Shown piece by piece: positions 1-41,080 of a stretch of DNA of 41,080 nt. Origin of the DNA: Thermodesulfobacteriota bacterium (lineage in GTDB: Bacteria > Desulfobacterota > Desulfobacteria > Desulfobacterales > Desulfobacteraceae). The stretch lies in NCBI GenBank assembly GCA_034659375.1, contig JAYEHB010000385.1:1-41080 (forward strand). The letters run 5' to 3'. The translations under genes were made by a program, and so were the position numbers. Under the pieces are notes generated by a model that saw nothing but the letters and a program-made list of their open reading frames with translations, searched no databases and was not told where the DNA came from. Each line of letters opens with the position of its first letter. The first letter of the stretch is position 1.

Positions 1-219
1 TGGCCGATGCGGAAACCACGCTCCGGCCATGCCGGTTTATATGAAAGTCCATCCAAGCGACTGCAATGATAGACTTTTTAACTTTGTTGTGACCGATGAG
101 AATGACCACGCTCCGGCCGTGCCGGTTTATATGAAAGTCCATCCAAGCGACTGCAATGATAGATTTTTTAACTTTGTTGTGACCGATGAGAATGACCACG
201 CTCCGGCCGTGCCGGTTAT
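1..219 (+). repeat. Tandem array (about 2.4 copies, open at the window edge) of a 90-bp unit belonging to the TATATGAAAGTCC / GTGRCCGATG..CCGGCCRTGCCGG interspersed-repeat family
   Basis: 31-120 and 121-210 are near-identical (gccggtttatatgaaagtccatccaagcgactgcaatgatagaYtttttaactttgttgtgaccgatgagaatgaccacgctccggccgt). A partial third copy lies at 211-219. The same motifs recur at about 2575, 9246, 18511, 20878 and 25716. Confidence 0.9.
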
Positions 220-238
220 ACAAATGGAGGTAATTAAA

Positions 239-5952: not shown

Positions 5953-5994
5953 GTTCCCCTCGCTCCCAAGCTGGAGCTTGGGAGCGAGGGGAAC
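5953..5994. terminator. Perfect 20-bp-arm palindrome between convergent rluD and fdhA (bidirectional terminator-like). Member of the CCCAAGCT-NN-AGCTTGGG family.
   Basis: gttcccctcgctcccaagct gg agcttgggagcgaggggaac. No strong T run directly adjoins either side. Confidence 0.6.
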
Positions 5995-8813: not shown

Positions 8814-8966
8814 GTTTAGTCTCTTAATTCCTAATTTTTTTTGGCAAAGGAATTAATAACCTTAAAGGTCACACCTGGCTTAGAAGGTCACACGTAACCT
8901 AAAGGTCACACGTAACCTCGTTTGCCTGTGACCTTCAGGTTAGGTTCTGGCTTGGTCAGGTTAGAA
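8814..8966 (+). repeat. L-module variant (TTAATTC..GGCAAAGGAATTAA hairpin) plus three copies of AGGTCACAC(G)TAACCT and the CGTTTGCCTGTGACCTTCAGGTTAGGTTCTGGCTTGGTCAGGTTAG tail
   Basis: Aligns with 20741-20841, 23046-23144, 24127-24227 and 25366-25466. Lies in the fdhA / RnfB-GltD divergent spacer. Confidence 0.85.
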
Positions 8967-9124: not shown

Positions 9125-9345
9125 TATACCCCCGTGCCTGGAACATGGTTATCTGTTTTCGGCCACAATACCCTAAAGGGCAGAAACCAAAACATAACCT
9201 GAAGGTCACACGTAAAACTCCATGAGTTTAAATAGTTATGCGGAGTTTCATATAACCGGCATGGCCGGAGCATGGTTACCGCATCGGCCACAATAAATTT
9301 AGAAAGTCTATTATTACAGTCGTTTGAACGGACTTTCATATAAAA
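9125..9345 (-). repeat. Mosaic interspersed-repeat cluster (reverse orientation)
   Basis: Contains ccacaataccctaaagggcagaaacc, aacctgaaggtcacacgtaa, tttcatataaccggcatggccggagcatggttaccgcatcggccacaat and gaaagtc..gaacggactttcatataaa. All of these match modules at 18511-18620 and 25219-25295. Confidence 0.88.
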
Positions 9346-12963: not shown

Positions 12964-12975
12964 CATTCTAATTTT

Positions 12976-13120
12976 TATAAACTGCCATGGGCAGTCCTGG
13001 TGGTTTAAGTCTGCACACAAATGGGCAACCCTGGTGGTTTAAGTCTGCACACAACAAATGATGAAGGGCAACCACAGGGGGTTGCCCCTACTCCTAGTTT
13101 GCCAAGAATTTCATATAAAA
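12976..13120 (-). repeat. Mosaic repeat: CTGCCATGGGCAG palindrome, duplicated GGTGGTTTAAGTCTGCACAC module, GGGCAACC..GGTTGCCC hairpin, TTTCATATAAA end
   Basis: The reverse complement aligns with 25727-25826, including the ggggcaacc(c)cctgtggttgccc insert. Confidence 0.88.
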
Positions 13121-13844: not shown

Positions 13845-15536
13845 ATGGTTAAAATAGAACCTGAGGGTTTTAAAAAAGAACCTGAGGAACTTAAAATAAT
13901 ACCTCTGGGCGGTCTTGGTGAGATTGGCCTTAATATGATGGTTGTTGAATATGATCAGACAATTTTTCTTATTGATGCAGGTCTGATGTTTCCTGAGGAT
14001 CACATGTTAGGTGTTGATATTGTAATTCCGGAAATAGACTATATCAAAGAGAACAGGGACAGGGTAAAAGGGATAATTATTACCCATGCCCATGAAGATC
14101 ACATAGGGGCACTTGTCTATCTTTTAAAGGATATTCCAATACCTGTCTATGGTACAGAGTTTACCCTGGGTATTATTGAAAACAAGCTCCAGGAATTTGA
14201 TCTTTTAAATACAACAGTGCTCAATGAGGTGGCTCCTGGAGAGGTTGTTTCAATATCTCCCTTTGAAATTGAGTTTATCCGTGTAAGCCACAGCATTGTG
14301 GGTGGTGTGGGGCTTGCCATAACAACTCCCCTGGGGCTTGTTGTTCACACAGGTGATTTCAGGCTAAATCATTGTTTAAAGGAATCAAACACAACAGATA
14401 TATCAAGGTTTGCCAAGTGCGGTGAACAGGGGGTTCTGGCACTTTTTTCTGATTCAACCAATGTGGAGCGGGAAGGCTTTTCTGTCTCTGACCAGATGGT
14501 GTTTGACTCCCTGGGAAAAATAATAGCAAACAGTGAAGGCAGGGTTATAATTGCTCTTTTTGCCTCTAATATATTTAGAATCCAGCAGATTATAGATATT
14601 GCACTGAAAAATAAGCGCAAAATAGTATTTAACGGCAGAAGCATTGAGCAAAATGTTGCCGTGGCAAAGAGACTTGGTTATCTTGACTTTCCAGATGATA
14701 TGGTCCTGAATGTAAAGAGTGTAAATTCCCAGCCTGATAACGAGGTTGTGATTATTACAACGGGAAGTCAGGGAGAACCCATGTCTGCCCTGTCACGCAT
14801 GGCAACAGGGTATCACAAGCAGATTAATATTAAAAAGGGGGACTCTGTCACTCTTTCGTCAAAATTTATTCCAGGTAATGAAAAAGCAATAGCAAATATC
14901 ATAAATAATCTGTACAGACGCGGTGCCGACGTGGTCTATGATAAGCTTGCACAGGTACATGTCTCAGGGCATGCATGCCGGGAAGAGCTGAAAATGATGA
15001 TCCATTTAACAAATCCTGAATATTTTATTCCCATTCATGGTGAGTACCGTCATCTGGTTATCCATGCAAGACTTGCTGAGAATCTTGGACTTGTTAGAAA
15101 AAAAGTTTTACTTGCAGAAAATGGCAGGGTTATTACCTTTGATGAAAATGGTGGGAGAATCGCAGGCAGCGTGGACACAGGCAGAATCCTGGTTGATGGC
15201 AAGGGCATAGGAGATGTTGGAAGGAGCGTCTTAAAGGAAAGACGTATTCTTTCCGAGGATGGTCTTGTTGTTGTTTCCATGATAATCGATGAGGAGACAG
15301 GCATTGTGCTGTACGGGCCTGAACTTATTTCCAAGGGTTTTGTCTTTGGTTCTGAAACCGGTTATCTTGTTGATGATGCACAATGTGTGATTTTAGAGAT
15401 TGTTGAGGAGATAGAGGCAGGGGTTGCTAACAGGGTGGATATCATACGTTCTAAACTGCAGAAAGCCCTTAAGCAGTATTTCTTTTTTACAATAAGACGT
15501 CGGCCGGTTATAGTGCCCATAATAATTGAAATATGA
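13845..15536 (+). CDS. rnj: Ribonuclease J (metallo-beta-lactamase / beta-CASP)
   Basis: IIPLGGLGEIGLNMMVVEY, THAHEDHIGAL and later beta-CASP motifs (HVSGHA). 563 aa. Confidence 0.92.
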   Translation: MVKIEPEGFKKEPEELKIIPLGGLGEIGLNMMVVEYDQTIFLIDAGLMFPEDHMLGVDIVIPEIDYIKENRDRVKGIIITHAHEDHIGALVYLLKDIPIPVYGTEFTLGIIENKLQEFDLLNTTVLNEVAPGEVVSISPFEIEFIRVSHSIVGGVGLAITTPLGLVVHTGDFRLNHCLKESNTTDISRFAKCGEQGVLALFSDSTNVEREGFSVSDQMVFDSLGKIIANSEGRVIIALFASNIFRIQQIIDIALKNKRKIVFNGRSIEQNVAVAKRLGYLDFPDDMVLNVKSVNSQPDNEVVIITTGSQGEPMSALSRMATGYHKQINIKKGDSVTLSSKFIPGNEKAIANIINNLYRRGADVVYDKLAQVHVSGHACREELKMMIHLTNPEYFIPIHGEYRHLVIHARLAENLGLVRKKVLLAENGRVITFDENGGRIAGSVDTGRILVDGKGIGDVGRSVLKERRILSEDGLVVVSMIIDEETGIVLYGPELISKGFVFGSETGYLVDDAQCVILEIVEEIEAGVANRVDIIRSKLQKALKQYFFFTIRRRPVIVPIIIEI

Positions 15537-18494: not shown

Positions 18495-18620
18495 TCATGC
18501 TCGGGCATTCCGGTTTATATGAAAGTCCGTTCAAACGACTATAATTATTGGACTTTCATCTTTAGGGTATTGTGACCGATGCGAATGGCCATGCCGGTTA
18601 CGTGTGACTTTCAGGGTATA
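18477..18620 (+). repeat. Mosaic repeat between convergent methyltransferase genes. Contains both stop codons.
   Basis: ttggccgatggcagataatcatgctcgggcattccggtt + tatatgaaagtccgttcaaacgact..ggactttcat + tagggtattgtgaccgatgcgaatggccatgccggttacgtgtgactttcagggtat. Matches 25219-25295 and the reverse complement of 9150-9345. Confidence 0.88.
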
Positions 18621-20728: not shown

Positions 20729-20972
20729 TGGTTTCTACCCTTTAGTTTCTTAATGCTTATTTTCGTGTTATTTTGGCAAAAGAATTAAAAAATCCGTTTG
20801 CGTTTGACCTTTAGGTTAGGTTCTGGCTTGTCCAGGTTAGGTACTGTGACCGATGCGGAAACTACGCTCCGGCCGTGCCGGTTTATATGAAAGTCCTGGC
20901 AAACCAGGAATGTAACTTTCATCATTTGTTGTGTGCAGACTTAGACCACCAAGGCTGCCCGTGGCAGTTATA
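20729..20972 (+). repeat. Composite: GGTTTCTACCCTTTAG + L-module + GTGACCGATG..CCGGCCGTGCCGG module + ATGAAAGTCCTGGCAAACCAGG..ACTTTCAT hairpin + GTGTGCAGACTTAGACCACC + CTGCCCGTGGCAG palindrome
   Basis: This is the best-preserved full-length array. Each part matches the copies listed elsewhere. The folC stop codon (20968-20970) lies in its last bases. Confidence 0.92.
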
Positions 20973-22275
20973 TTAAATCTTTTATGATTTTTGCTCTGGC
21001 TTCTCCTGCCACATAAAGAGAACCTGCAACACAGATAACATCTGAACCAGATGATCCTTTTACTGCATATTCCACTGCTTCTGCCGCATCTTTAATTATA
21101 ATCGTTTCCTGGTTTGAAAGTTTTTCTACTGCTTGTTTAAGGATTTCAGGCTCAAGGCTTCGATCAATTTTTGCCTTTGTGATTATTATTTTGTTAACAT
21201 GGGGCACCAGGCTTTTAAGCATTGATTCATAGGGTTTATCATCTAAAATTCCAATTACAAGAGTAATCTTTTTTTCTGAAAGTTCCTGGCTGAGGTAGGT
21301 GCCAAGATTCTTTGCAGCCTCAAAATTATGGGCTCCGTCAAGGATAACCATTGGGTTGACCATGATATGCTCAAGTCGTCCAGGCCATGTTGTTGTCTGA
21401 ATGCTTTTTCTGATGCCCTTTTCTGTCAGGTTAAATCCGTGATGATTTTTTTTAAAATCATTTGCAAAAAGAAGTTCCAGGGCGGCCAGGGCCAGGCCTG
21501 CATTCTCTATCTGGTGATTGCCTGGAAGGGATGTTTTTATTTTTGTCCACCTGTTGTTAATGCCATTGTAATTAAAAGATTGTTCTTTGGAGTTTTTTTC
21601 TGTATTAAAATCTTTTTTATATAGATAGAGTGGGGCAGATTTCTTTTTTGCAATTTTTTTAAGAACAGCAAGGGCTTCTTCCTGTTTTACTCCTGTGATC
21701 ACCGGAGTGTTCTTTTTAATGATTCCGCATTTTTCCCCTGCAATCTCTTGAATTGTCTCACCCAGATAATCAGTATGTTCAATGGAGAGATTTGAGATGA
21801 TACAGAGCTCAGGTTTAACTACGTTTGTGGCATCAAGCCGGCCGCCCATACCGGTCTCTAATACTGCCCATTGAACCTTTTCTCTGTTAAAGAGATAAAA
21901 GCCCATGGCAGTGGCAATTTCAAAAAAAGTTGCTTTTCTCTCTCCTGTATCAGCTTTTTGAACTGCCAGGTAAGATTCAACAATATCATCGTTGGATACA
22001 TCTATGCCGTTTATTGAAAATCTTTCATTAAATTTCACCAGATGGGGGGATGTGTAAAGAGCTGTTTTAAATCCTGCTTCCCTTAGTAAGGAGGCTGTGT
22101 ATGATGCTATGGAACCTTTTCCGTTTGTGCCGGCTATATGAATGCTTTTAAATTTTGGTTCAGACAGATTAAGTCTTTTTAGAATATCTTTGATTGTGGA
22201 AAGTTCAAGTTTAATGCCAAAACGTCCAAGAGCGTACATTTCATCAAGGCATTCATTGTATGAGATCTGTTTCAT
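20968..22275 (-). CDS. folC: Bifunctional folylpolyglutamate synthase / dihydrofolate synthase
   Basis: Mur-ligase family: HIAGTNGKGS P-loop, DATNV, ILDGAHN. 435 aa. Confidence 0.9.
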   Translation of the reverse strand: MKQISYNECLDEMYALGRFGIKLELSTIKDILKRLNLSEPKFKSIHIAGTNGKGSIASYTASLLREAGFKTALYTSPHLVKFNERFSINGIDVSNDDIVESYLAVQKADTGERKATFFEIATAMGFYLFNREKVQWAVLETGMGGRLDATNVVKPELCIISNLSIEHTDYLGETIQEIAGEKCGIIKKNTPVITGVKQEEALAVLKKIAKKKSAPLYLYKKDFNTEKNSKEQSFNYNGINNRWTKIKTSLPGNHQIENAGLALAALELLFANDFKKNHHGFNLTEKGIRKSIQTTTWPGRLEHIMVNPMVILDGAHNFEAAKNLGTYLSQELSEKKITLVIGILDDKPYESMLKSLVPHVNKIIITKAKIDRSLEPEILKQAVEKLSNQETIIIKDAAEAVEYAVKGSSGSDVICVAGSLYVAGEARAKIIKDLI

Positions 22276-23045: not shown

Positions 23046-23206
23046 TTTAGTTTTGTAATTCTTATTTTCGTGTTATTTTGGCAAAAGAATTAAAAAAATC
23101 CGTTTGTGTGTGATCTTCAGGTTAGGTTCTGGCTTGTCCAGGTTTAAAATATTCGGCTTATGCTGTAAAGTGGCCGAAAGCAGATGATCATGCTTTCGGC
23201 CATGCC
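23046..23206 (+). repeat. L-module + AATATTCGGCTTATGCTGTAAAG module + perfect hairpin variant of the GGCCGA..CGGCC module
   Basis: 23046-23144 aligns with the other L copies. 23147-23170 matches 27268-27288 and the reverse complement of 25191-25213. GGCCGAAAGC (23172-23181) pairs with GCTTTCGGCC (23192-23201). Confidence 0.88.
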
Positions 23207-24126: not shown

Positions 24127-24227
24127 ATTTAGTTTCTTAATTCTTAATTTTCGTGTTTTCTGGCAAAAAAATTAAGAGACCCGTTTGCGTGTGACCTTTA
24201 GGTTAGATTCTGGCTTGTCCAGGTTAG
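24127..24227 (+). repeat. L-module copy
   Basis: tttagtttcttaattcttaattttcgtgttttctggcaaaaaaattaagagacccgtttgcgtgtgacctttaggttagattctggcttgtccaggttagg. Confidence 0.9.
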
Positions 24228-24283
24228 GTTTTATAAAAGTGGTTGAAGAATGTCAAGTCTTGGTGTATTGAAAGGTTAAAATT

Positions 24284-25190: not shown

Positions 25191-25466
25191 CTTTACATTA
25201 TAAGCCGAATATTTATCTTGGTTTCTGCCCTTCAGGGTATTGTGGCCGATGCAGTAATTATGCTCCGGTCATGCTGGTTACGTGTGACCTTTAGTGCCTT
25301 ATTCCTCAGTTTCTGTTAAAAAAACAAGAAAATGAGGAACGGCAACTGGGTTGCGGGTTTTCCGCGTTAGTTTCTTAATTCTTATTTTCGTGTTATTTTG
25401 GCAAAAGAATTAAAAAATCCGTTTGCGTGTGACATTTAGGTTAGGTTCTGGTTTGTCCAGGTTAGG
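25191..25466 (+). repeat. Composite repeat cluster: reverse-complement TATTCGGCTTATAATGTAAAG + GGTTTCTGCCCTTCAGGGTAT + GTGGCCGATG..module + GGTTACGTGTGACCTTTAG + 13-bp hairpin + L-module
   Basis: Module-by-module matches to 18555-18620, the reverse complement of 9150-9220, and 20729-20841. Hairpin ttcctcagtttct..agaaaatgaggaa at 25302-25339. Confidence 0.88.
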
Positions 25467-25515
25467 TTGTAAAGTTAGGTTACAAAAAAATAAGCTGTCC
25501 AAGAAAACATCATGT

Positions 25516-25560
25516 CATCAGAAAAACAGATCAATCATGCCATCAGAAAAACAGATCAAT
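25516..25560 (+). repeat. Two perfect 20-nt direct repeats (CATCAGAAAAACAGATCAAT) separated by 5 nt
   Basis: 25516-25535 and 25541-25560 are identical. They are followed by the perfect palindrome GGGGTCAG-GT-CTGACCCC at 25583-25600. Confidence 0.9.
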
Positions 25561-25637
25561 TGAATAATTCCAGGGGGCCAACGGGGTCAGGTCTGACCCC
25601 TCCAGGTACGACTATAATCATTGGATTTTCATTTTTT

Positions 25638-25920
25638 GGTTTCTGCCCTTTTTTTAGGGTATTGTGGCCGATGAGAATGACCATGCACCGGCCAGTTTCT
25701 GCCCTTTAGGGTATGCCGGTTTATATGAAAGTCCTGGCAAACCAGGAGTAGGGGCAACCCCCTGTGGTTGCCCTTCATCATTACGTTGTGTGCAGACTTA
25801 GACCACCAGGGTTGCCCATAGCAGTTTATATGAAAGTCCTGGCAACCCAGGAGTGTAACTTTCATCATTTGTTGTGTGCAGACTTAGACCACCAAGGCTG
25901 CCCATGGCAGTTATATGAAA
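25638..25920 (+). repeat. Composite repeat cluster ending in two tandem copies of the ATGAAAGTCC-hairpin / GTGTGCAGACTTAGACCACC / palindrome unit
   Basis: 25722-25826 (with a GGGGCAACC..GGTTGCCC insert) and 25827-25917 (near-identical to 20884-20968). Preceded by the ggtttctgccc..tagggtattgtggccgatgagaatgaccatgcaccggcc modules. Confidence 0.92.
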
Positions 25921-26010
25921 TAAAGGCATAGGCTATGCAAGACAAAGGTTGCAGGCAGGACAAATGTGTGTGCAGAAAAATAATGAATAATTTTTACGGG
26001 GTGTGTTTCC

Positions 26011-32620: not shown

Positions 32621-33373
32621 GTGAAAAAATATCACCTTGACCCTGACCAACTGCCAGGACATGTTGCCGTGATAATGGACGGTAATGGAAGATGGGCAAA
32701 AAAAAGGTTAATGAACCGTGTAAAGGGTCATGAAAGGGGAACAGAAACAGTCCGCTCAATTGTTGATATCTGTTGTGAGCTTGGGATTGAGTTTCTTACT
32801 CTTTACGCTTTTTCCACGGAAAACTGGTCAAGGCCGGAAAGAGAGATTTCACTGTTGATGAGCCTTTTAAAACGATATGCTAAATCAGAACGTTCTGAGT
32901 TTGTTGAAAAAAATATCCGGCTCAACGTAATCGGTCAAAAGCACAGATTACCTGAAAACGTAAGAAGAGAGCTTGATATAACCATTGACCAGACCAGGAA
33001 TAATAATGGGCTGGTGGTAAATCTTGCTTTAAGCTATGGTGCCAGGGAAGAGATAACAAGGGCTGTAAAAAAACTGGCACAAAAGGTTGAGGCTGGAGAT
33101 ATCCTGTGCAGGGATATCTCTGAAAAGAGCATATGTGATCATCTTTACACAAAAAATATGCCTGATCCTGATATCCTGATACGTACCAGTGGAGAGATGC
33201 GGCTTAGTAATTTTCTTTTGTGGCAGGCTGCATATACTGAGATTTTTATTACAGATACTCTGTGGCCTGATTTTACAAAAAAAGAGTTTGTTAATATTTT
33301 AAGAGAATATCAAACCCGGGACCGCAGGTTTGGAAAGGTTGTATGCACCTCAAACGATGGATCACCGCAATAG
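32621..33373 (+). CDS. uppS: Isoprenyl transferase (undecaprenyl-diphosphate synthase). Start uncertain: GTG 32621, or ATG 32573/32582 overlapping frr.
   Basis: HVAVIMDGNGRWAKKR, FSTENWSRP, and RTSGEMRLSNFLLWQAAYTE. Confidence 0.88.
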   Translation: MKKYHLDPDQLPGHVAVIMDGNGRWAKKRLMNRVKGHERGTETVRSIVDICCELGIEFLTLYAFSTENWSRPEREISLLMSLLKRYAKSERSEFVEKNIRLNVIGQKHRLPENVRRELDITIDQTRNNNGLVVNLALSYGAREEITRAVKKLAQKVEAGDILCRDISEKSICDHLYTKNMPDPDILIRTSGEMRLSNFLLWQAAYTEIFITDTLWPDFTKKEFVNILREYQTRDRRFGKVVCTSNDGSPQ

Positions 33374-34152
33374 TTCTTCTTCCGCTTCTTTTTCTGATTA
33401 TTTTAAAAGGAAGTACCCTGCTCTTTTCAATTCTCATGGCTTTTATTGCCGTTGCTGCCATGACAGAATATTTTTCAATTGTATCGTTCCCTTTATCAGG
33501 TAAAATACCATTAACCATTAAATTTTTTGCCCATGGAGTCGCCCTTGCACTGATAGCAGGTGCCCAGACAGGCTCTATTCAAATTATAGTGGCAGCTCTT
33601 GCCATGAATATCATACTCCTCTCCATGACAGTTATTGCTGATTTTTCCAGGGAAAGTTCCATTCTTGATTCTGTTTCAAAACAGATACAGGGGGTTGTCT
33701 ATATACCTCTGTTTCTCTCTATGTTTGTACTCATAAGAAATTCAGAAAATGGAGCTTTGTGGGTTGTCTGGCTCTGGCTTATTATTGGGGCAGGCGATAC
33801 AGGTGCATTTTATTGTGGTATGAATTTCGGCAAACGAGCCCTTGCTCCAAAGGTCAGTCCCAAAAAAACAGTTGAAGGTGCCATAGGAGGTCTTTTTGCA
33901 GCAGTTCTTGTGGGGATTGTCTTTAGCAGACTGTTTCTGCCGGAAATTTCTCCATGTATGGTGGTTCTTTTTGCCGCAGTGGCAGCTGCAGCAGGACAGA
34001 TTGGCGATCTTTTTGAGTCAGCCCTTAAAAGAGCAGGTAATATAAAGGATTCAGGAAAGATTTTACCTGGGCATGGTGGTATTCTCGATAGAATAGACGG
34101 GCTGCTTTTTGCTGTTCCTGTTGCATATGTTTTTAAGGTCTTTTTGATATGA
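33343..34152 (+). CDS. cdsA: Phosphatidate cytidylyltransferase
   Basis: Multi-transmembrane protein with the C-terminal signature SALKRAGNIKDSGKILPGHGGILDRIDG. Confidence 0.9.
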   Translation: MHLKRWITAIVLLPLLFLIILKGSTLLFSILMAFIAVAAMTEYFSIVSFPLSGKIPLTIKFFAHGVALALIAGAQTGSIQIIVAALAMNIILLSMTVIADFSRESSILDSVSKQIQGVVYIPLFLSMFVLIRNSENGALWVVWLWLIIGAGDTGAFYCGMNFGKRALAPKVSPKKTVEGAIGGLFAAVLVGIVFSRLFLPEISPCMVVLFAAVAAAAGQIGDLFESALKRAGNIKDSGKILPGHGGILDRIDGLLFAVPVAYVFKVFLI

Positions 34153-34283
34153 AATTTTGTCCAATGTACTTTACTGATAGTTGTAACCACGGCCTTGTTT
34201 CCAGGCTGAAGCTTGGGAACGAGGCTTGCGGCAGAGTTTTATCTTTGGTTGTGGCAAAGCGATCCGTCATGGGGGGTATATGA
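34149..34283 (+). other. 44-codon relay mini-ORF filling a 131-bp repeat-derived insertion between cdsA and dxr (ATGA overlaps at both ends)
   Basis: ATG 34149 overlaps the cdsA TGA (34150-34152). The frame is open to TGA 34281-34283, which overlaps the dxr ATG 34280. Flanked by ATATGAAA at 34147-34154 and 34278-34285. Peptide: MKFCPMYFTDSCNHGLVSRLKLGNEACGRVLSLVVAKRSVMGGI. Confidence 0.45.
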
Positions 34284-35446
34284 AAAGATTATCCATTCTT
34301 GGTTCCACAGGCTCCATTGGAAGGAGTACCCTTGAGATTGCTGCAATGCACCCGGAGCTGTTTGATGTTGTGGTACTTGCCGCTGCAAACAGTGTTGACC
34401 TTCTTTCTGAACAGATCCGACAATTTAAGCCTGAACTTGCAGTGGTTATTGATGAGACGCGTGCCGGGGAACTGAAAAAGTTGATAAACGGAACCGGCTT
34501 TGATGGAATTAAAACCAGGATTCTTTTTGGTGACAAGGGGTATGAAGAGGCTGCTTCCTATGGTGGTGCAGATATGGTTCTGCTTGCCATGGTGGGTGCC
34601 GCAGGATTAATGCCGGCTTTAGCAGCAATAGATGCCGGCAGGGAGATCGCACTGGCCAATAAGGAGACCCTTGTCATGGCCGGGGATATTGTCATGTCCC
34701 GGGCAAGGGAAAAAAATGTTAAGATTTTGCCCGTTGACAGTGAGCACAGTGCCATATTTCAGTGCCTTGAGGGGAACAGGCAAAAAGATTTTAAAAAAAT
34801 TTTTCTTACTGCATCGGGTGGTCCTTTTAGAACAAAGAGTATTTCAGAGTTTAAGGATATTCTGCCTGAACATGCTTTAAATCATCCCACATGGAATATG
34901 GGCAGCAAGATAAGTATTGATTCTGCTACCATGATGAACAAGGGGCTTGAGATTATTGAAGCTGTTCATCTTTTTGATATTCCTGTCTCTGCCGTTGAGG
35001 TGCTGGTTCATCCCCAGAGTATAGTACATTCCATGGTGGGGTTTAAAGATGGTATAGTAATGGCCCAGATGGGATTGCCTGATATGAAGGCTGCCATATC
35101 CTATGCTCTTTCCTGGCCAAAGCGGCTGGAGCCTGGCTTGAATTTTCCTGATTTTGCAGCAATGGAGAATCTTGTTTTTGAAAAGCCTGATCATGAAAAA
35201 TTTCCCTCCCTTGGTTTTGCAAAGGAGGCATGCCGCACAGGCGGGACTATGCCTGCTGTTATGAATGCAGCCAATGAGGTTGCCGTTAAAGCTTTTCTTG
35301 AATTAAAAATTGATTTCCCAGCTATTTTTAAATTAATTGAGAAATGTATGGAGCTTCATAATAGCGTTGACTCTCCTGATATTTCAGATATTATTGAGGC
35401 TGATGCATGGGCAAGGAAAACATTAAAATTGAAAATTGAAAATTGA
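34280..35446 (+). CDS. dxr: 1-deoxy-D-xylulose 5-phosphate reductoisomerase
   Basis: MKRLSILGSTGSIGRSTL NADPH motif, LANKE, and DSEHSAIFQCL. Start taken at ATG 34280, not the ORF-track start 34226. Confidence 0.93.
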   Translation: MKRLSILGSTGSIGRSTLEIAAMHPELFDVVVLAAANSVDLLSEQIRQFKPELAVVIDETRAGELKKLINGTGFDGIKTRILFGDKGYEEAASYGGADMVLLAMVGAAGLMPALAAIDAGREIALANKETLVMAGDIVMSRAREKNVKILPVDSEHSAIFQCLEGNRQKDFKKIFLTASGGPFRTKSISEFKDILPEHALNHPTWNMGSKISIDSATMMNKGLEIIEAVHLFDIPVSAVEVLVHPQSIVHSMVGFKDGIVMAQMGLPDMKAAISYALSWPKRLEPGLNFPDFAAMENLVFEKPDHEKFPSLGFAKEACRTGGTMPAVMNAANEVAVKAFLELKIDFPAIFKLIEKCMELHNSVDSPDISDIIEADAWARKTLKLKIEN

Positions 35447-35544
35447 AAATTGAAAATTAGAAATTAGAAATTAGAAATTAGAAATTAGAAATTAGAAATT
35501 AGACATTAGAAATTAGACATTAGACATTAGAAATTAGAAATTAG
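35425..35544 (+). repeat. Heptanucleotide tandem array: 4 x AAAATTG, one 8-nt hybrid unit, then 12 x A(A/C)ATTAG
   Basis: Direct reading. The dxr stop TGA (35444-35446) and its last roughly 7 codons (KLKIEN) lie inside the AAAATTG units. Confidence 0.95.
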
Positions 35545-35638
35545 GAAGATTAAAGTGGCAGGTTCGTGGTTCAATGTTGTTGATCAGGAACCGGCTTTGA
35601 GTCTGTGACCCCAAATTTCAGATTTCAAGGATTATATT

Positions 35639-36709
35639 ATGGGTCATTCAATAGTGGCGTTTGTTATTGTTCTGGGTGTTTTGATATTTTTTCATGAACT
35701 TGGACATTTTCTTGTGGCAAGGTTTTTTGGAGTGGGTGTTGAGACCTTTTCCTTAGGCTTTGGGCCAAAAGTATATAAAATTAAAAAAGGTTTTACAGAG
35801 TATTGTCTCTCTATTATCCCCCTTGGCGGGTATGTGAAAATGGTTGGCGAGGAGCCTGGGGTTGAGATAAAAGAGGAGGATGTTCCAATATCCTTTGACC
35901 ATAAAAAACTCTACCAGAAAATGCTCATTGTTGCAGCAGGCCCTGTCTTTAATTTTTTGCTGGCAATTTTGATTTTTTATGCACTGTTTCAGTTTTCAGG
36001 ACTCTATCTGATAAAGCCTGTGGTGGGTGAAGTTACTGAAAATACACCGGCTTTTGCAGCGGGTATTGAAAAGGGTGATGAGATAAAAGGCATTTTTGGG
36101 GAAAAAATCGACTCCTGGGATGACATGGTTGATCTCATCGGTGCAAGTAACGGCATGGCCGTTGAAATTCTAATTCAGCGCAAAGGGAGCATCTTTCCCG
36201 TCACCCTGGTGCCTGAAGTAAAAAAAACAAAAAATATATTTGGTGAAGATGTTGAGAGATATATGATCGGTATCTCAGCTTCAGGAGAGGTGTTTCACAA
36301 ATCCCTTAACCCTTTTCAGGCAATGTTTGCAGCTTTTGAAAAAACATGGGATATAATTGAATTAACAGTTCTCTCTGTTGTGAAAATGATAAATGGAACT
36401 GTCTCTTCAGATAATATGGGCGGTCCCATAATGATAGCTCAGATGGCAGGAGAGCAGGCAAAGGCAGGCATGGCAAATTTTGCCTTTTTCATTGCAATGC
36501 TCAGTATCAACCTTGGAATTATCAATCTTTTCCCTGTTCCTGTGCTGGATGGCGGTCATCTTTTTTTCTTTGGAATTGAGGCTGTCAGAGGAAAAGCGGC
36601 AAGTGAAAACATTCGTGAAAAGGCAAATCAGTTTGGAATGGCACTTCTGGTTGCTCTGATGGTTTTTGTTTTTTATAATGATATAATCAGGATGGTTAAT
36701 GGTGGATAA
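35639..36709 (+). CDS. rseP: RIP zinc metalloprotease RseP (site-2 protease, PDZ domain)
   Basis: HELGHFLVAR zinc motif, a central PDZ-like segment, and the C-terminal NLFPVPVLDGGH. Confidence 0.9.
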   Translation: MGHSIVAFVIVLGVLIFFHELGHFLVARFFGVGVETFSLGFGPKVYKIKKGFTEYCLSIIPLGGYVKMVGEEPGVEIKEEDVPISFDHKKLYQKMLIVAAGPVFNFLLAILIFYALFQFSGLYLIKPVVGEVTENTPAFAAGIEKGDEIKGIFGEKIDSWDDMVDLIGASNGMAVEILIQRKGSIFPVTLVPEVKKTKNIFGEDVERYMIGISASGEVFHKSLNPFQAMFAAFEKTWDIIELTVLSVVKMINGTVSSDNMGGPIMIAQMAGEQAKAGMANFAFFIAMLSINLGIINLFPVPVLDGGHLFFFGIEAVRGKAASENIREKANQFGMALLVALMVFVFYNDIIRMVNGG

Positions 36710-39700
36710 TATGATCTCATGTATAGAGGTTGCTTTAAAACCTGAGCTTGTTGATGCAGAAGCAGAGAGTCTTAAAAAAAAGGCTTTGGATTACTTTAAT
36801 ATCAATATTTCAGATGTACGCAGTGTAAACCTGGTAACCCTGGAGGCGGATCTTGACAGGGATCAGCTTGATCTTATAAAGAACGAGATTTTAACCAATC
36901 CTGTGATTCATTATTCTTCTTTAATTCCCCTTGATATTAAGTTTGACTGGTGCATCTGGATTGGCCTGCGTCCGGGCGTGAGGGATAATCCTGCAAGCAC
37001 GGCTGTTGAGGCTGTGGAAGATATCCTTAACAGAGAGTTTAAGCCGGGTGAGGGAATTTATACCTCAAAAAGGTATTGCCTTGCGGGAGACGGACTTGCC
37101 CTGGAAGATATTGAAAAAATAGCAAAAGAGCTTCTGGCAAATCCTATTATCCAGCAGTGGAAGGTTTTTTCAAAAAAAGAGTGGGACAGCAAAAAAGGTG
37201 CCGGTTCAACACCTGCAAAGGTGCTTTTGGACCATGAACCAGAGTTTAAAATTATTAATATTGATTCTGACAAAGAGCTTCAAAGAATCAGTGACAAGAG
37301 AAATCTTGCATTAAATCCCAGTGATATTCCTGTGATTCGTCAATATTTCCTGGATGAAAAAGTACAACAATCAAGAAAAGAGATGGGGCTTAATGAACCC
37401 ACGGATGTGGAGATTGAGTATATATCCCAGGCACGCAGTGATCATTGCAACCACAATACCTTCAGAGGTCTGTTTAGGTATCAGGATGTTGAAACAGGCG
37501 AAAAAAGTGTGGAAAAAAGTCTTTTTAAAACATTTATTGAGGAGCCGACCCTAAGGCTTAAAGAGAAAAAAGAGTGGGTGGTTTCTGTGCTGTGGGATAA
37601 TGCAGGTGTTGGGAAATTTGATGAAAACAACAACTATGTAATAACAGGAGAGACCCATAACTCTCCATCCAACATGGAGGCCTATGGCGGTGCAATCACA
37701 GGCATCGTGGGAGTTTACCGTGATCCCATGGGAACCGGCATGGGTTCAAGGCTTATCATGGGAAGTTATGGTTTTTGTGTTGGTGATATTGACTATAAGG
37801 GACCGTTAAAACCTCCCCTTCATCCAAGACGACTGCTTGACGGGGTCATCGAGGGGGTCAAGGATGGAGGAAACAAGAGCGGTGTTCCAACAACATTTGG
37901 ACAGACTCTTTTTAATTCAGGTTACATGGGAAAAAGCCTTGTATTTGTCACAGCCCTTGGAATCATGCCGGCAAAGGTGCCGGGTGAACCAGACCCTGCT
38001 CAAAAAAGAATTTCTGGAGATGAACAAAGGGCAGCTGTCTGCGGAGAGATTCCTGAAAAACCAAGCCATACAAAAGAGACATCTAAAGGGGAATTCATTG
38101 TCATGAGCGGAGGCAGGGTTGGCAAGGATGGAATCCACGGAGTTACAGTCTCCTCGGAAAGTTATTCTGAAAATACACCGGCAGGCCATGTTCAGATAGG
38201 AGATCCCTATACCCAGAAAAAGATGCACGATTTTCTACTCATTGCCAGGGATAAAGGGCTTTTCCAGTTTATCACAGATAATGGCGGCGGCGGGTTGTCC
38301 TCCTCTGTTGGTGAATCTGCCATGATAAGCAACGGCTGCGAAGTGTGGCTTGACAAAGTGCCCCTTAAGTATGAAGGTCTTGACATGTGGGAGATATGGA
38401 TATCTGAATCCCAGGAGCGCATGACCATCTCTGTAAAACCTGAAAATATTGAAAGATTCATGGAACTTTCAGAGGAACATGCTGTTGAGAGTACTGTTAT
38501 TGGCAGATATACAGATACAGGCAAGCTCCATATCAAGTATAATGACAAAACATGTGCCTATATTGATATGGATCTTCTGGAAAAAGGCTTTCCAGGATGG
38601 GAGTTTGATGCTCAATGGCTTTCACCGGAATTAAGAGGTTTGACAGAGCCTGTCCTGGGCAGCCCCAATGACTTTGAAACACTTTTATGTGATATGCTCT
38701 CAAGGCCGAATATATGTTCAAAAGAGTGGATAACAAGGCAGTATGACCATGAGGTCCAGGGGGGAAGTGTGATAAAACCCCTTGGGGGAGTAAAAAACAA
38801 TATACAGTCAGATGCCTCTGTGATAAGGCCCCTGCTTAAATCCGGCAAAGGTCTTGCTTTTTCCCAGGCTCTCTTACCATGGTATTCAAAGATTGATTCA
38901 TTTCATATGATGACATGCACCATTGATGAAGCTGTAAGACGTTTGATAGCAGTTGGAGGAACATTGGACCATATTGGCGGGGTTGATAATTTCTGCTGGC
39001 CTGATATTGCTTTTCACCCTGAAAAGAACCCGGACGGTAAATTCAAGGCAGCCCAGCTTGTAAGGGCATGCAGAGCATTGAAACAGGCATGCCTTGCCTA
39101 TGAGATTCCCCTTCTTTCGGGTAAGGATTCCATGTATGTTGACGGGCATCTTACAGGGAAATATGGTCAACGTGTAAAGGTTTCAGCCCTTGAGACTGTG
39201 CAGTTCTCTGCAACTTCAGTGATTGAGGATGTGACAAAATGCATTACAATGGAGCCAAAAACCAGTGGGGATCTTGTTTATATTCTTGGTGTTACAAAAA
39301 ATGAGCTTGGTGCATCAGAGTATTACGAACTTCTTGGAAAAACAGGTCTTAATGTTGCCAAAGTAAATTTTGAAAAATTCAAAGTTGTATATAAGGCCCT
39401 TGAAAAGGCAATTGATCAGGAGATAGTCGCTTCTGCCCATGCAGTATCAAGGGGCGGGCTTGGCGTTCATATTGCCATGTCTGCCATGGCCGGAGGGTTA
39501 GGTATTGATTTTGATCTCTCCAAAGTACCGGCAGATGATATTAGAGGAAAACTTGATAATGCAAAAATTCTTTTTTCTGAATCACAGGGAAGATTTATTG
39601 TTACCATTGCACCGGAAAACAGAAGCGTTTTTGAAAAGTTGTTCAAAGGAATGGCATGCTCTTTTGCAGGAAAGGTAACAGATTCACATTTTAATATGAT

Positions 39701-39791
39701 GATAAAAGGGCTTGATGGGGATATGATTACAGAAATGTCCGTTGACATGCTTGAAAAGGCCTTTACAGAGCCTCTGGGGGATATGATATGA
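36699..39791 (+). CDS. purL: Phosphoribosylformylglycinamidine synthase, PurL (FGAM synthase II) with N-terminal PurS-like domain(s) fused
   Basis: The first roughly 170 aa look like two PurS-type modules (IEVALKPELVDAEAESL.., IWIGLRPGVRDNPAST..). These are followed by AIR-synthase-type PurL domains (SDHCNHNTF, ETHNSPS, GGGGLSSSVGE). ATG 36711 is an alternative start. Confidence 0.85.
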   Translation: MVDNMISCIEVALKPELVDAEAESLKKKALDYFNINISDVRSVNLVTLEADLDRDQLDLIKNEILTNPVIHYSSLIPLDIKFDWCIWIGLRPGVRDNPASTAVEAVEDILNREFKPGEGIYTSKRYCLAGDGLALEDIEKIAKELLANPIIQQWKVFSKKEWDSKKGAGSTPAKVLLDHEPEFKIINIDSDKELQRISDKRNLALNPSDIPVIRQYFLDEKVQQSRKEMGLNEPTDVEIEYISQARSDHCNHNTFRGLFRYQDVETGEKSVEKSLFKTFIEEPTLRLKEKKEWVVSVLWDNAGVGKFDENNNYVITGETHNSPSNMEAYGGAITGIVGVYRDPMGTGMGSRLIMGSYGFCVGDIDYKGPLKPPLHPRRLLDGVIEGVKDGGNKSGVPTTFGQTLFNSGYMGKSLVFVTALGIMPAKVPGEPDPAQKRISGDEQRAAVCGEIPEKPSHTKETSKGEFIVMSGGRVGKDGIHGVTVSSESYSENTPAGHVQIGDPYTQKKMHDFLLIARDKGLFQFITDNGGGGLSSSVGESAMISNGCEVWLDKVPLKYEGLDMWEIWISESQERMTISVKPENIERFMELSEEHAVESTVIGRYTDTGKLHIKYNDKTCAYIDMDLLEKGFPGWEFDAQWLSPELRGLTEPVLGSPNDFETLLCDMLSRPNICSKEWITRQYDHEVQGGSVIKPLGGVKNNIQSDASVIRPLLKSGKGLAFSQALLPWYSKIDSFHMMTCTIDEAVRRLIAVGGTLDHIGGVDNFCWPDIAFHPEKNPDGKFKAAQLVRACRALKQACLAYEIPLLSGKDSMYVDGHLTGKYGQRVKVSALETVQFSATSVIEDVTKCITMEPKTSGDLVYILGVTKNELGASEYYELLGKTGLNVAKVNFEKFKVVYKALEKAIDQEIVASAHAVSRGGLGVHIAMSAMAGGLGIDFDLSKVPADDIRGKLDNAKILFSESQGRFIVTIAPENRSVFEKLFKGMACSFAGKVTDSHFNMMIKGLDGDMITEMSVDMLEKAFTEPLGDMI

Positions 39792-39931
39792 AAAAAGTGA
39801 GGGTACTGGTTTTAACAGGATTTAACGATCTCGTTCCCAAGCTCCAGCTTGGGAACAAGCGGGTACTGGCTGAAATAAATGGAGTTTCATTTTTCGTTAT
39901 GGCAGAACATTCTGCCATGGGGGTTATATGA
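39788..39931 (+). other. 47-codon relay mini-ORF filling a 140-bp insertion between purL and purQ (ATGA overlaps at both ends). Its first 12 codons duplicate the purQ N-terminus.
   Basis: ATG 39788 overlaps the purL TGA (39789-39791). The frame is open to TGA 39929-39931, which overlaps the purQ ATG 39928. ATATGAAA lies at 39786-39793 and 39926-39933. Peptide: MKKVRVLVLTGFNDLVPKLQLGNKRVLAEINGVSFFVMAEHSAMGVI. Confidence 0.45.
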
Positions 39932-40749
39932 AAAGGGTCAAAGCACTGGTTCTTACAGGATTTGGATTAAATTGTGATATTGAGACAGCTTTTGCATTTG
40001 AACTTGCAGGGGCTGAGGCAAAAAGGGTTCATATTAATTCCCTGATTAATGGTAAAGAAGATCTTGATGATTTTCAAATTCTTGCCTTTGGCGGAGGCTT
40101 TTCCTGGGGTGATGACCATGGCGCAGGAGTTGTTCAGGCCCTTAAGCTGAAAAAACATATTGGTGCAAAGCTTCTCTCTTTTATTGAAAAGGGCAGACTT
40201 GTCATGGGAATCTGCAATGGTTTCCAGACCCTGGTTAACCTTGGTCTGCTTCCTGGTTTAAACAATGATTACAGAGCCAGAACTGTTGCTCTTACATGGA
40301 ACGATTGTGGTAATTTCAGAGACCAGTGGGTGCATCTTAGATCAAATCAGCAAAGTCCCTGCGTTTTTACAAAGGATATGGAGGTTATTGATCTGCCTGT
40401 TCGTCATGGTGAGGGTAAGTTTGTTGCAGAGCCTGAAATAATTGATCAGCTTATGGCAAACAATCAGGTGGTATTAAGGTATGCTGATAAAGACGGTTCT
40501 TCTGCTGAAAAGAGTTTTCCCCTGAATCCCAATGGCTCAATTTATGACATAGCAGGTATCTGCGATCCCACAGGGCGAATTTTCGGACTCATGCCCCATC
40601 CCGAAGCATTTAACCATTTTACAAATCACCCTGACTGGACAAGGAAAAAACAGCAGCTTAAAAGCCAGGGTAAAGAGATGGATACCGGCATTACCAGTGG
40701 TATTAAAATGTTTAAAAACGGTGTGGATTATATGGCTTCCATGCTTTAA
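39928..40749 (+). CDS. purQ: Phosphoribosylformylglycinamidine synthase I (glutamine amidotransferase subunit)
   Basis: LVLTGFGLNCD, nucleophile GICNGFQ, and MPHPE. Confidence 0.9.
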   Translation: MKRVKALVLTGFGLNCDIETAFAFELAGAEAKRVHINSLINGKEDLDDFQILAFGGGFSWGDDHGAGVVQALKLKKHIGAKLLSFIEKGRLVMGICNGFQTLVNLGLLPGLNNDYRARTVALTWNDCGNFRDQWVHLRSNQQSPCVFTKDMEVIDLPVRHGEGKFVAEPEIIDQLMANNQVVLRYADKDGSSAEKSFPLNPNGSIYDIAGICDPTGRIFGLMPHPEAFNHFTNHPDWTRKKQQLKSQGKEMDTGITSGIKMFKNGVDYMASML

Positions 40750-40769: not shown

Positions 40770-41080
40770 TCAAAGCGTGGATTCCCTCAATGTGCTGAAA
40801 AAAAATTTTATTTCTTCTTTGCCAAGCACAGTAGGTAACATTGGTTTTTTCTTGGAACGTATGGGCATGATTTTTTCTTCCAAAGGGAGATCAAGCACCT
40901 CACGGTAAAGAAAAACAATGGCATTCAAGGCCTGGCGCTGGGTGGATGCGGATACCTCTCCCTTAACCACCAGATCTGACAGAAAACGCTCCACATGGTG
41001 AGCCACAAGGTCCCGGGGATGGATTTTACCAACGAAAAATAGGATGTACCTCAATATCCATTGACAATAGGTCTGCTCAG
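40770..41080 (-). pseudogene. Truncated tyrosine recombinase: integron-integrase-like N-terminal (SAM-like) domain only. 5' end lies outside the window.
   Basis: The frame is open to the window edge. EQTYCQWILRYILFFVGKIHPRDLVAHHVERFLSDLVVKGEVSASTQRQALNAIVFLYREVL..PMLPTVLGKEEI parallels IntI1 (EQAYVHWVRAFIRFHG..VSVSTHRQALAALLFFY..RLPVVLTPDEV). It stops at 40770, 20 nt from purQ, and no catalytic R..HxxR..Y domain follows. Confidence 0.6.

Follow-up and report, generated by a model that had tools for sequence, protein, structure and literature searches.

The purL/purQ Junction and Its Insert

The DNA considered here, referred to as the window, is a stretch of 41,080 nucleotides (nt) from a member of the Desulfobacteraceae (Thermodesulfobacteriota bacterium, GenBank assembly GCA_034659375.1, contig JAYEHB010000385.1, positions 1 to 41,080 of the forward strand), in which a small repeat element occupies the junction between the genes purL and purQ. 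The upstream gene, purL (36699..39791, + strand), encodes a fused PurS-PurL phosphoribosylformylglycinamidine (FGAM) synthase of 1030 amino acids (aa) with the Pfam domains AIRS, AIRS_C, PurS and FGAR-AT_linker, and the downstream gene, purQ (39928..40749, + strand), encodes a protein of 273 aa that is identified by Pfam GATase_5 (3e-88). Between them lies a mini open reading frame (mini-ORF; 39788..39931, + strand), which is proposed below to act as a translational relay. The 3' end of purL reads ...GAT ATG ATA TGA, and its TGA (39789-39791) overlaps the first ATG of the mini-ORF (ATG#1, 39788) in the motif ATGA (39788-39791); from there, 47 codons run without a stop to a TGA (39929-39931) that overlaps the ATG of purQ in a second ATGA (39928-39931). 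The original prediction, made from the letters of the sequence, had named both overlaps and the open frame between them, and all three are indeed present, as is an uninterrupted ATGA junction at rnj/ftsK (15533-15536). The distance from ATG to ATG is 140 nt, i.e., 2 modulo 3. The frame of the mini-ORF differs from those of purL and purQ, and the element is part of neither PurL nor PurQ; the insert is not an in-frame intragenic palindromic element of the Rickettsia type (RPE-like). In independent assemblies the mini-ORF has been called as a gene (P0122, L001).

The insert is flanked by a direct repeat. An octamer, ATATGAAA, had been predicted to bound it on both sides and is found at 39786-39793 and 39926-39933; the true length of the repeat, however, is about 38 bp (39786..39823 and 39926..39963, both + strand), with 30/38 positions identical and a local-alignment score of 28 that was obtained in 0/2000 shuffles. 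The right copy contains the functional start of purQ (ATG 39928) and codons 1-12. The left copy is a relic of the ancestral junction including the same twelve codons: codons 1-12, with which the mini-ORF opens (MKKVRVLVLTGF), were copied from the N-terminal part of purQ (MKRVKALVLTGF). By comparison with relatives, it is this upstream copy that retains the ancestral context, namely the Shine-Dalgarno (SD) sequence of purQ (GGGGG, 39776..39780, + strand, 7 nt upstream of ATG#1; GGAGA in relatives), the ATGA overlap and the beginning MKKVR.., and the old SD now serves the mini-ORF. The mini-ORF is thus headed by the genuine former translation-initiation region of purQ and is, for this reason, very likely translated.

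The original claim was that an element had targeted or duplicated the junction, thereby preserving the upstream stop and the downstream start. The junction is duplicated and both signals are intact, but the octamer is not a target duplication peculiar to this site; as the boundary motif of the window-wide mosaic repeats, it is found 23 times in the window (3.3 expected). A true target-site duplication is therefore indistinguishable from an event of recombination or template switching at the boundary motif that the repeat family itself carries. The 38 bp would be accounted for by a double template switch, or by recombination, over the ~10 nt that the element end TTATATGAAAAG and the native junction ATATGAAAAAG have in common. 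To our knowledge, transposition of the IS200/RAYT type (RAYT, REP-associated tyrosine transposase; REP, repetitive extragenic palindrome) leaves the target unduplicated. The purL/purQ insert is not a simple tandem duplication, since its element core does not resemble the 3' end of purL. The insert ends are direct (ATATGAAA ... TTATATGAAA) rather than inverted; a miniature inverted-repeat transposable element would combine terminal inverted repeats with a target-site duplication.

Evidence for an Insertion

The history of the junction was assessed in 80 species-level relatives from the Desulfobacteraceae/Desulfobacterales, whose PurQ is 65-77% identical to that of the window. In 64 of the 80 the junction is empty, i.e., the TGA of purL overlaps the ATG of purQ as ATGA, and 29 junctions read exactly ATATGAAA. 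A typical empty site in these relatives is ..GGAGAyATGATATGAAAAAGGT.., with a PurQ start of MKKV[KRN]AL.LTGFGLN. Because the empty overlap is found in 64/80 relatives, the 140 bp represent a derived insertion, which bears out the original claim. The insertion is also present in two same-lineage assemblies, L001 (99% identical to the window) and L084 (96.4%), and a second insertion in the window, at cdsA/dxr (see below), recurs in the assemblies L082/L083, where its mini-ORF has been called as a gene (P0121, Logan assemblies). An assembly artefact can thus be ruled out. A strict pattern of the element gave 0 matches in genome and metagenome contig collections, which lack the source genome, and an exact look-up of the PurQ of the window yielded no record.

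Two further observations concern the same junction in metagenome-assembled genomes (MAGs). In L002 (2922-3000), a relative of the TTATTTTGGCAAAAGAATTAAAAA..CGTTTGCGTGTGACCTTTAGGTTAGGTTCTGGCTTGTCCAGGTTAG repeat has entered the 3' end of purL, directly ahead of the purQ SD, and PurL gains a new C-terminus from it; in view of this case, the purL/purQ junction looks like a recurrent landing site for small repeats. The TTATTTTGGCAAAAGAATTAAAAA..CGTTTGCGTGTGACCTTTAGGTTAGGTTCTGGCTTGTCCAGGTTAG repeats form a separate family, with window copies at 8836-8964, 20768-20840, 23073-23146, 24160-24228 and 25393-25465. In L007 (2816-3001), the reading frame of purL is lost 184 nt short of the junction and resumes in another frame to a normal GDMI*/ATGA end, which is probably a sequencing frameshift and not biology.

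Composition of the Element

The insert contains a palindromic core, GTTCCCAAGCT-CC-AGCTTGGGAAC, which is present as predicted at 39833-39856 with a perfect stem of 11+11; the full REP palindrome (39830..39859, + strand) has an extended stem in which 13/14 positions pair. It is followed by a mosaic-repeat module, GGTACTGGCTGAAATAAATGGAGTTTCATTTTT (39861..39893, + strand), that is similar to ~25606-25640 (score 29, 0/300 shuffles), and by a 3' terminal module (39901..39933, + strand) composed of the hairpin GGCAG-AACATT-CTGCC (39901-39916), ATGGGGG with an SD-like G-run (39919-39923), and TTATATGAAA. This terminal module is related to the mosaic-repeat end CTGCCCATGGCAGTTATATGAAA, and mosaic units, for example that at 20881-20978, have ends similar to the insert end CTGCCATGGGGGTTATATGAAA. 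The insert may accordingly be described, from its modules, as a composite mosaic repeat resembling a bacterial interspersed mosaic element (BIME), in which a REP palindrome is combined with a module of the TTATATGAAA-bounded repeats. The original suggestion of a small non-autonomous repeat agrees with a second copy in the window, the REP identity of the palindrome, and the match of the 3' module to window-wide repeats.

The assignment to the REPs is based on several features. The palindromes of both insert copies are short (24-34 nt, within the 20-40 nt of REPs) and can form stem-loops, with folds that are more stable than those of shuffled sequences (z = -2.8 and -3.0). Moreover, the same palindrome flanks a RAYT gene in a different organism, L089: GTTCCCAAGCT(CC/GG)AGCTTGGGAAC stands on both sides of a 181-aa gene (790-1335), the 24-mer being identical to that of the window, and the gene product matches the NCBIfam equivalog NF047646 REP_Tyr_transpos with 114.6 bits (cut-off 80) as well as Pfam Y1_Tnp. 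The GTAG/CGTC tag is absent at the REP ends: the flanks read ..GATCTCGTTCCC.. and ..GGGAACAAGCGGGTAC.. in the window and ..ATCGTTCCC...GGGAACGAGG in L089, and the nearest sequence is a CGTT inside the stem. There is one REP per insert copy (purL/purQ, cdsA/dxr) and not the inverted pair with a short spacer that defines a REPIN; the second hairpin of the purL/purQ insert (39901-39916) is unrelated to the REP and is not conserved in the cdsA/dxr copy. Doublet and triplet forms of the REP occur elsewhere (L152, L117). A search of the window with Rfam at the gathering threshold returned only two tRNAs and no family for the element, so that a reading as a known RNA or riboswitch was rejected, and neither insert copy contains an intrinsic terminator-like or a promoter-like site.

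The 41-kb window holds 3 REP copies. The third (5953..5994, strand not assigned) is GTTCCCCTCGCTCCCAAGCT-GG-AGCTTGGGAGCGAGGGGAAC with a 20-bp stem; it is placed between convergent genes, outside any relay context. Compared with the copy at 39833, its changes come in pairs (T to C together with A to G), so that the palindrome is preserved. Beyond the window, the exact 24-mer GTTCCCAAGCTNNAGCTTGGGAAC was found in at least 120 JGI metagenome contigs (including L090-L169) with GC contents from 0.37 to 0.69. This REP sequence is unusually widespread, and it often stands in a triplet with GAAGCTCCAGCTTC-type hairpins.

Mosaic intergenic repeats are abundant in the window (1-220, 2480-2690, 9240-9345, 12965-13120, 18495-18600, 20845-20980, 25200-25925). 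Their modules comprise CCGGCCATGCCGG or CTGCCATGGGCAG hairpins, TTTATATGAAAGTCC...GGACTTTCAT inverted pairs, and CATTTGTTGTGTGCAGACTTAGACCACC. Among the repeats are two tandem units of 90 bp (15-194) with 98% identity, and none has an Rfam match. The family occurs with the same mosaic architecture in other Desulfobacterium species (L017:4380-5100, L030).

A Second Copy at cdsA/dxr

A related insert separates cdsA (33343..34152) from dxr (34280..35446). It was found by repeat homology and not by its ORF, and it nevertheless forms a mini-ORF of 44 codons (34149..34283, + strand) with ATGA overlaps at 34149-34152 and 34280-34283 and an ATG-to-ATG distance of 131 nt, again 2 modulo 3. At both loci, each end of the insert thus shows the stop/start overlap of a coupled gene pair. 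The core of the second copy (34185..34287, + strand) is homologous to 39824-39935 with 77% identity and net indels of +3 and -12 nt; the two inserts differ by 9 nt in length (131 vs. 140 nt), and the net indels are multiples of 3. Its REP hairpin (34192..34225, + strand) has a 16-bp stem with three G.U pairs, which form on the sense strand only. In both copies the relay frame is the only open sense frame, and one antisense frame is open too.

Two relatives share the gene order rpsB-tsf-pyrH-frr-uppS-cdsA-dxr-rseP-purL-purQ. In both, cdsA ends in ..TTGTGA and is followed by a spacer of 10-13 nt without an SD before dxr. The left ATATGAAA/ATATGA at cdsA/dxr is therefore not native, and it either came with the element or had arisen earlier in the lineage, ahead of the insertion. 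A dxr origin was considered for the left 36 nt of the second copy and was ruled out, as an equally good score is reached by 81% of shuffles; to the eye, this stretch looks like a mosaic-repeat module, but its alignment with the D4 unit is not significant (p = 0.3).

Independent Cases

Two arrangements of the same kind were found outside the window. In a Methylobacter-like contig (Ga0208125_100010; L152:9628-9891), the ATGA overlap of DUF4381/batA is the exact position of a 260-nt array of REPs of the same family. The array has a 6-bp ATGATT repeat on either side and contains an ORF of 87 codons running from ATGA to ATGA, a frame that is open in only 2.9% of shuffles. All seven related Methylobacter loci that were inspected, out of eight fetched (L210-L212, L214-L217), have an empty, uninterrupted overlap, ..aaaatcATGATTCAC... 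In Desulfocicer vacuolatum DSM 3385 (L077:2890-3004), the purL/purQ junction has undergone an independent duplication of 71 nt, which yields a 24-codon ATGA-to-ATGA ORF (MIKFKYLTADLNKYTWTLPLGDMI) and repeats the 3' end of purL at ~27/33 positions. This duplication probably includes a relic of the purQ 5' end and, unlike the window copy, looks like a simple tandem duplication of the junction. In all four junction insertions or duplications (two in the window, L152, L077), the added length is 2 modulo 3 and the frame is fully open.

A further metagenome locus, L157 (4576-4899), has a 107-codon ORF across a 308-nt array of two REP families; its start lies 8 nt upstream of the stop codon of a YhcG-like gene, and its end 8 nt past the initial ATG of an HsdS-like gene.

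Chance and Possible Selection on the Open Frame

The relay frame is open in 11% (purL/purQ) and 14% (cdsA/dxr) of dinucleotide-preserving shuffles, and the required phase has a prior of 1/3, which together give ~0.04 for one copy alone. A single copy is thus unconvincing, and weight can only come from recurrence. In this respect, the second copy has remained in phase and open although it has diverged by 23% and acquired indels. A different kind of evidence is provided by the comparison of the window with L084. In the 12 relic codons, 5 substitutions have occurred, all of which are synonymous in the frame of the mini-ORF; the neutral expectation is ~24-35% synonymous, so that 5/5 has a p of roughly 0.001-0.03, depending on counting. 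The same comparison gave 20 synonymous and 14 non-synonymous substitutions in purL. The purely synonymous pattern argues for translation of the relic codons. Gene conversion as its cause is unlikely, since the variable sites are interleaved with fixed differences between relic and purQ. The relic substitutions cluster at 39794-39812, where divergence from L084 is 14% as compared to 3.6% overall. At the RNA level, all four departures from the perfect palindrome (in the second copy and in L084) are G.U pairs that form on the sense strand only, which would fit a transcribed hairpin. Taken together, the evidence for selection on the frame is suggestive (p roughly 0.01-0.05).

A Proposed Relay Across the Insert and Its Alternatives

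The reading that we favor, with a probability of roughly 45%, is that a REP/mosaic repeat has inserted at the ATGA overlap of purL and purQ and that the insert is bridged by a relay ORF, which would keep the translation of PurL and PurQ coupled. Architecture, ancestry and REP identity were established above; from these, we infer translation of the frame, reinitiation at its end, and a selective benefit. Specifically, a composite mosaic repeat would have entered the ancestral overlap and duplicated ~38 bp of the junction, such that the insert came to be headed by the old purQ SD, ATG and 12 codons, and its last bases recreated an SD-like G-run and a second ATGA. Ribosomes that end on purL, or that load at the old SD, would start at ATG#1 and translate the 47-codon frame through the REP hairpin; the hairpin would thereby be unwound and the spacer covered by ribosomes, leaving no long untranslated stretch in an essential operon. 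Termination on the TGA that overlaps the new purQ ATG might then be followed by reinitiation there, so that two successive termination-reinitiation steps replace one and coupling is kept. The cdsA/dxr copy would work likewise, and only insertions with an open, in-phase frame would persist at tightly coupled junctions. Open frames with this bridging architecture were found at purL/purQ and cdsA/dxr in the Desulfobacteraceae and at DUF4381/batA in Methylobacter. The extension to a general rule, according to which REP-type mosaic repeats on overlapping junctions in essential operons are retained only as translational relays (bridging mini-cistrons), is tentative, and we would put it well short of even odds.

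The most serious competitor, which we regard as quite conceivable, accepts the same insertion and duplication but treats the open frame as an incidental by-product, with purQ and dxr initiating independently at a G-rich SD brought in by the element. A number of findings weigh against a relay, and most of them speak directly for this alternative. Both copies carry an SD-like G-run (GGGGG or GGGGGG) 3-4 nt before the new ATG, and purQ and dxr could therefore initiate on their own. ATGA is built into the boundary motif ATATGAAA, with its 23 occurrences in the window, and the REP core is stop-free in all six frames, which makes an open frame not very improbable, as the 11-14% of shuffles also indicate; the open antisense frame in both copies hints at a general poverty in stop codons. 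The two window copies share ancestry, so their cores are not independent, and the first case was chosen for its ORF, which is an ascertainment bias. In the element core, window and L084 differ by 3 non-synonymous changes and 1 synonymous change, i.e., there is no conservation of the core peptide. In other relatives, purL and purQ are separated by plain spacers of 41-207 nt that hold no bridging ORF, and L009, L061 and L062 combine a plain spacer with an ordinary SD; a relay is therefore not obligatory at this junction. Finally, most of the REPs in co-directional spacers lack a bridging ORF: among 80 metagenome REP loci that were scanned, only 2 clear cases (L152, L157) and 1 weak case of a bridging ORF were seen. 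What an incidental frame leaves unexplained is that four junction cases are all 2 modulo 3 and fully open, including the 87-codon frame that is open in 2.9% of shuffles, that indels between the window copies are multiples of 3, and that the relic substitutions are 5/5 synonymous.

REPs are known as mRNA stabilizers and processing barriers from enterobacterial operons. The REP hairpin might likewise act within the mRNA and set the purL:purQ and cdsA:dxr ratios, the ORF being secondary; this possibility is partly compatible with the other explanations but, as the principal one, appears unlikely. The sense-strand-only G.U pairs would maintain the hairpin in the second copy and in L084, the folds beat shuffled sequences at the z-scores given above, and REPs in general favor co-directional spacers, GT pairing in their stems having been taken as a sign of transcription (Di Nocera 2013). 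Yet ribosomes that translate the frame from its strong ancestral initiation region would often melt the hairpin within it, the element has no U-tract, no terminator-like site and no Rfam family match, and the phase and openness of the frame are left unaccounted for.

That the mini-ORFs encode functional small proteins of 47 and 44 aa is highly improbable, even though both have been called as genes in independent assemblies and the relic N-terminus shows only synonymous changes. Neither has a Pfam match, and a profile search of 1.84 billion representative proteins returned only the two peptides themselves (P0121, P0122), the tandem-REP proteins P0123/P0124, and a short stretch in the 3989-aa P0125. 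P0123 and P0124 consist of tandem LVPKLQLGN units whose DNA is the identical palindrome; they exemplify tandem REP copies that gene callers have turned into 'proteins'. Apart from the REP-encoded LV.[KR]L.LGN and the terminal MG.I, the two peptides have nothing in common, and non-synonymous changes outnumber synonymous ones (3 vs. 1) in the core between strains. A ribosomal bypass, in which ribosomes would start at the ancestral purQ site, read 12 codons and then hop from ACA-GGA-TTT to its duplicate 140 nt downstream to make full-length PurQ, could draw on the identical ACAGGATTT at take-off and landing, on a hairpin that starts 9 nt after the take-off codon, and on the synonymous-only change of codons that would end up in PurQ, but it is extremely improbable given a gap of 140 nt as compared to about 50 nt in known cases, no stop codon at take-off, a downstream copy with its own SD, ATG and complete N-terminus, and the lack of such a duplication in the second copy.

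Surroundings of the Locus

Immediately downstream of purQ, on the - strand (40773-41078), lies a fragment that resembles the N-terminus of an integron integrase (Phage_int_SAM_4, 3e-21; TIGR02249, 91 bits, below the cut-off of 265). It has a stop after ~100 residues and is cut by the window edge, and it is probably the remnant of a pseudogene. An integron attC reading of the repeats was prompted by this fragment; the flanking genes are conserved syntenic housekeeping genes. The dxr-rseP spacer (35412-35554) holds a tandem array of ~20 heptamers (AAATTGA, AAATTAG, ACATTAG).

Implications

REPs and mosaic repeats are usually viewed as extragenic hairpins of RNA or DNA, and coupling is thought to require a stop and a start within a few bases. 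If the frame does serve as a relay, tightly coupled essential operons could absorb 130-260 nt of selfish DNA without uncoupling, and the general rule, if true, would be a so far undescribed way for operons to accommodate selfish repeats. The bridging ORFs would then form a recognizable class of 'hypothetical' mini-genes, which annotators now call or discard at random, and might serve as a natural model for constructs that insulate coupled genes or tune them. The relay is also directly testable, as related Methylobacter assemblies have a batA junction without the insert and strains with and without it may exist. Should the open frame be neutral, the locus would still be a clean, dated example of REP insertion with junction duplication, involving an unusually widespread REP.

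Comparison with Known Systems

Programmed translational bypass is exemplified by T4 gene 60 and the mitochondrial byp elements, with gaps of about 50 nt. The window insert resembles these systems in that it lies between duplicated matching codons and has a hairpin after the take-off position; it differs by a gap that is ~3 times longer, the lack of a take-off stop, and a complete independent start downstream, which makes bypass very unlikely.

A closer relation exists to REP and REPIN elements, which are mobilized by RAYTs (Nunvar 2010; Bertels & Rainey 2011; Di Nocera 2013). REPs are preferentially located between co-directional genes, and their frequent GT stem pairs are taken as evidence of transcription; REP ends can donate stop codons to flanking ORFs, and intragenic REPs are known (Di Nocera 2013). 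The window palindrome conforms to this picture in being 24-34 nt long and multicopy, in its position between co-directional genes, in its G.T stem pairs, and in sharing a 24-mer that flanks a RAYT gene. It lacks the GTAG/CGTC tag of REPs, and unlike a REPIN the insert is a single REP within a larger mosaic unit and not an inverted doublet. In contrast to products of IS200-type transposition, the inserts are flanked by direct repeats of 8-38 bp (8 bp at cdsA/dxr, 38 bp at purL/purQ, and 6 bp, ATGATT, in L152), among which ATATGAAA is also the family-internal boundary motif. The main difference from known REPs would be the position of the window REP inside a presumably translated frame that links two genes. 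With BIMEs, the insert shares the combination of a REP hairpin with other conserved modules and the tandem and mixed arrangements across the window; its modules differ from those of enterobacterial BIMEs, and the boundary motif TTATATGAAA is specific to these Desulfobacteraceae.

Small repeats with a coding capacity have been described as well: the ORF-carrying ERIC (enterobacterial repetitive intergenic consensus) and RU-1..3 repeats are fused into proteins (Delihas 2007, PMC2759123), and Rickettsia palindromic elements, as cited in Di Nocera 2013, insert in frame into genes. The window insert is likewise small, non-autonomous and open in a reading frame. However, the ERIC/RU and Rickettsia elements add peptide segments to host proteins, while the window insert forms a separate mini-cistron that reaches from the upstream stop to the downstream start. 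A literature search of incomplete coverage turned up no description of such a repeat-derived mini-cistron, a negative that does not prove absence; for the REP sequence and for its peptide, the literature yielded only unrelated primers.

Translational coupling by termination and reinitiation at an overlapping stop and start (ATGA) is a well-known arrangement. Both ends of the insert are of this type, and the ancestral junction, as seen in 64/80 relatives, is a single overlap of the same kind. What distinguishes the insert-bearing junctions from such single ATGA coupling is that two overlaps stand in series, joined by a bridging cistron of 44-87 codons that was made by insertion.

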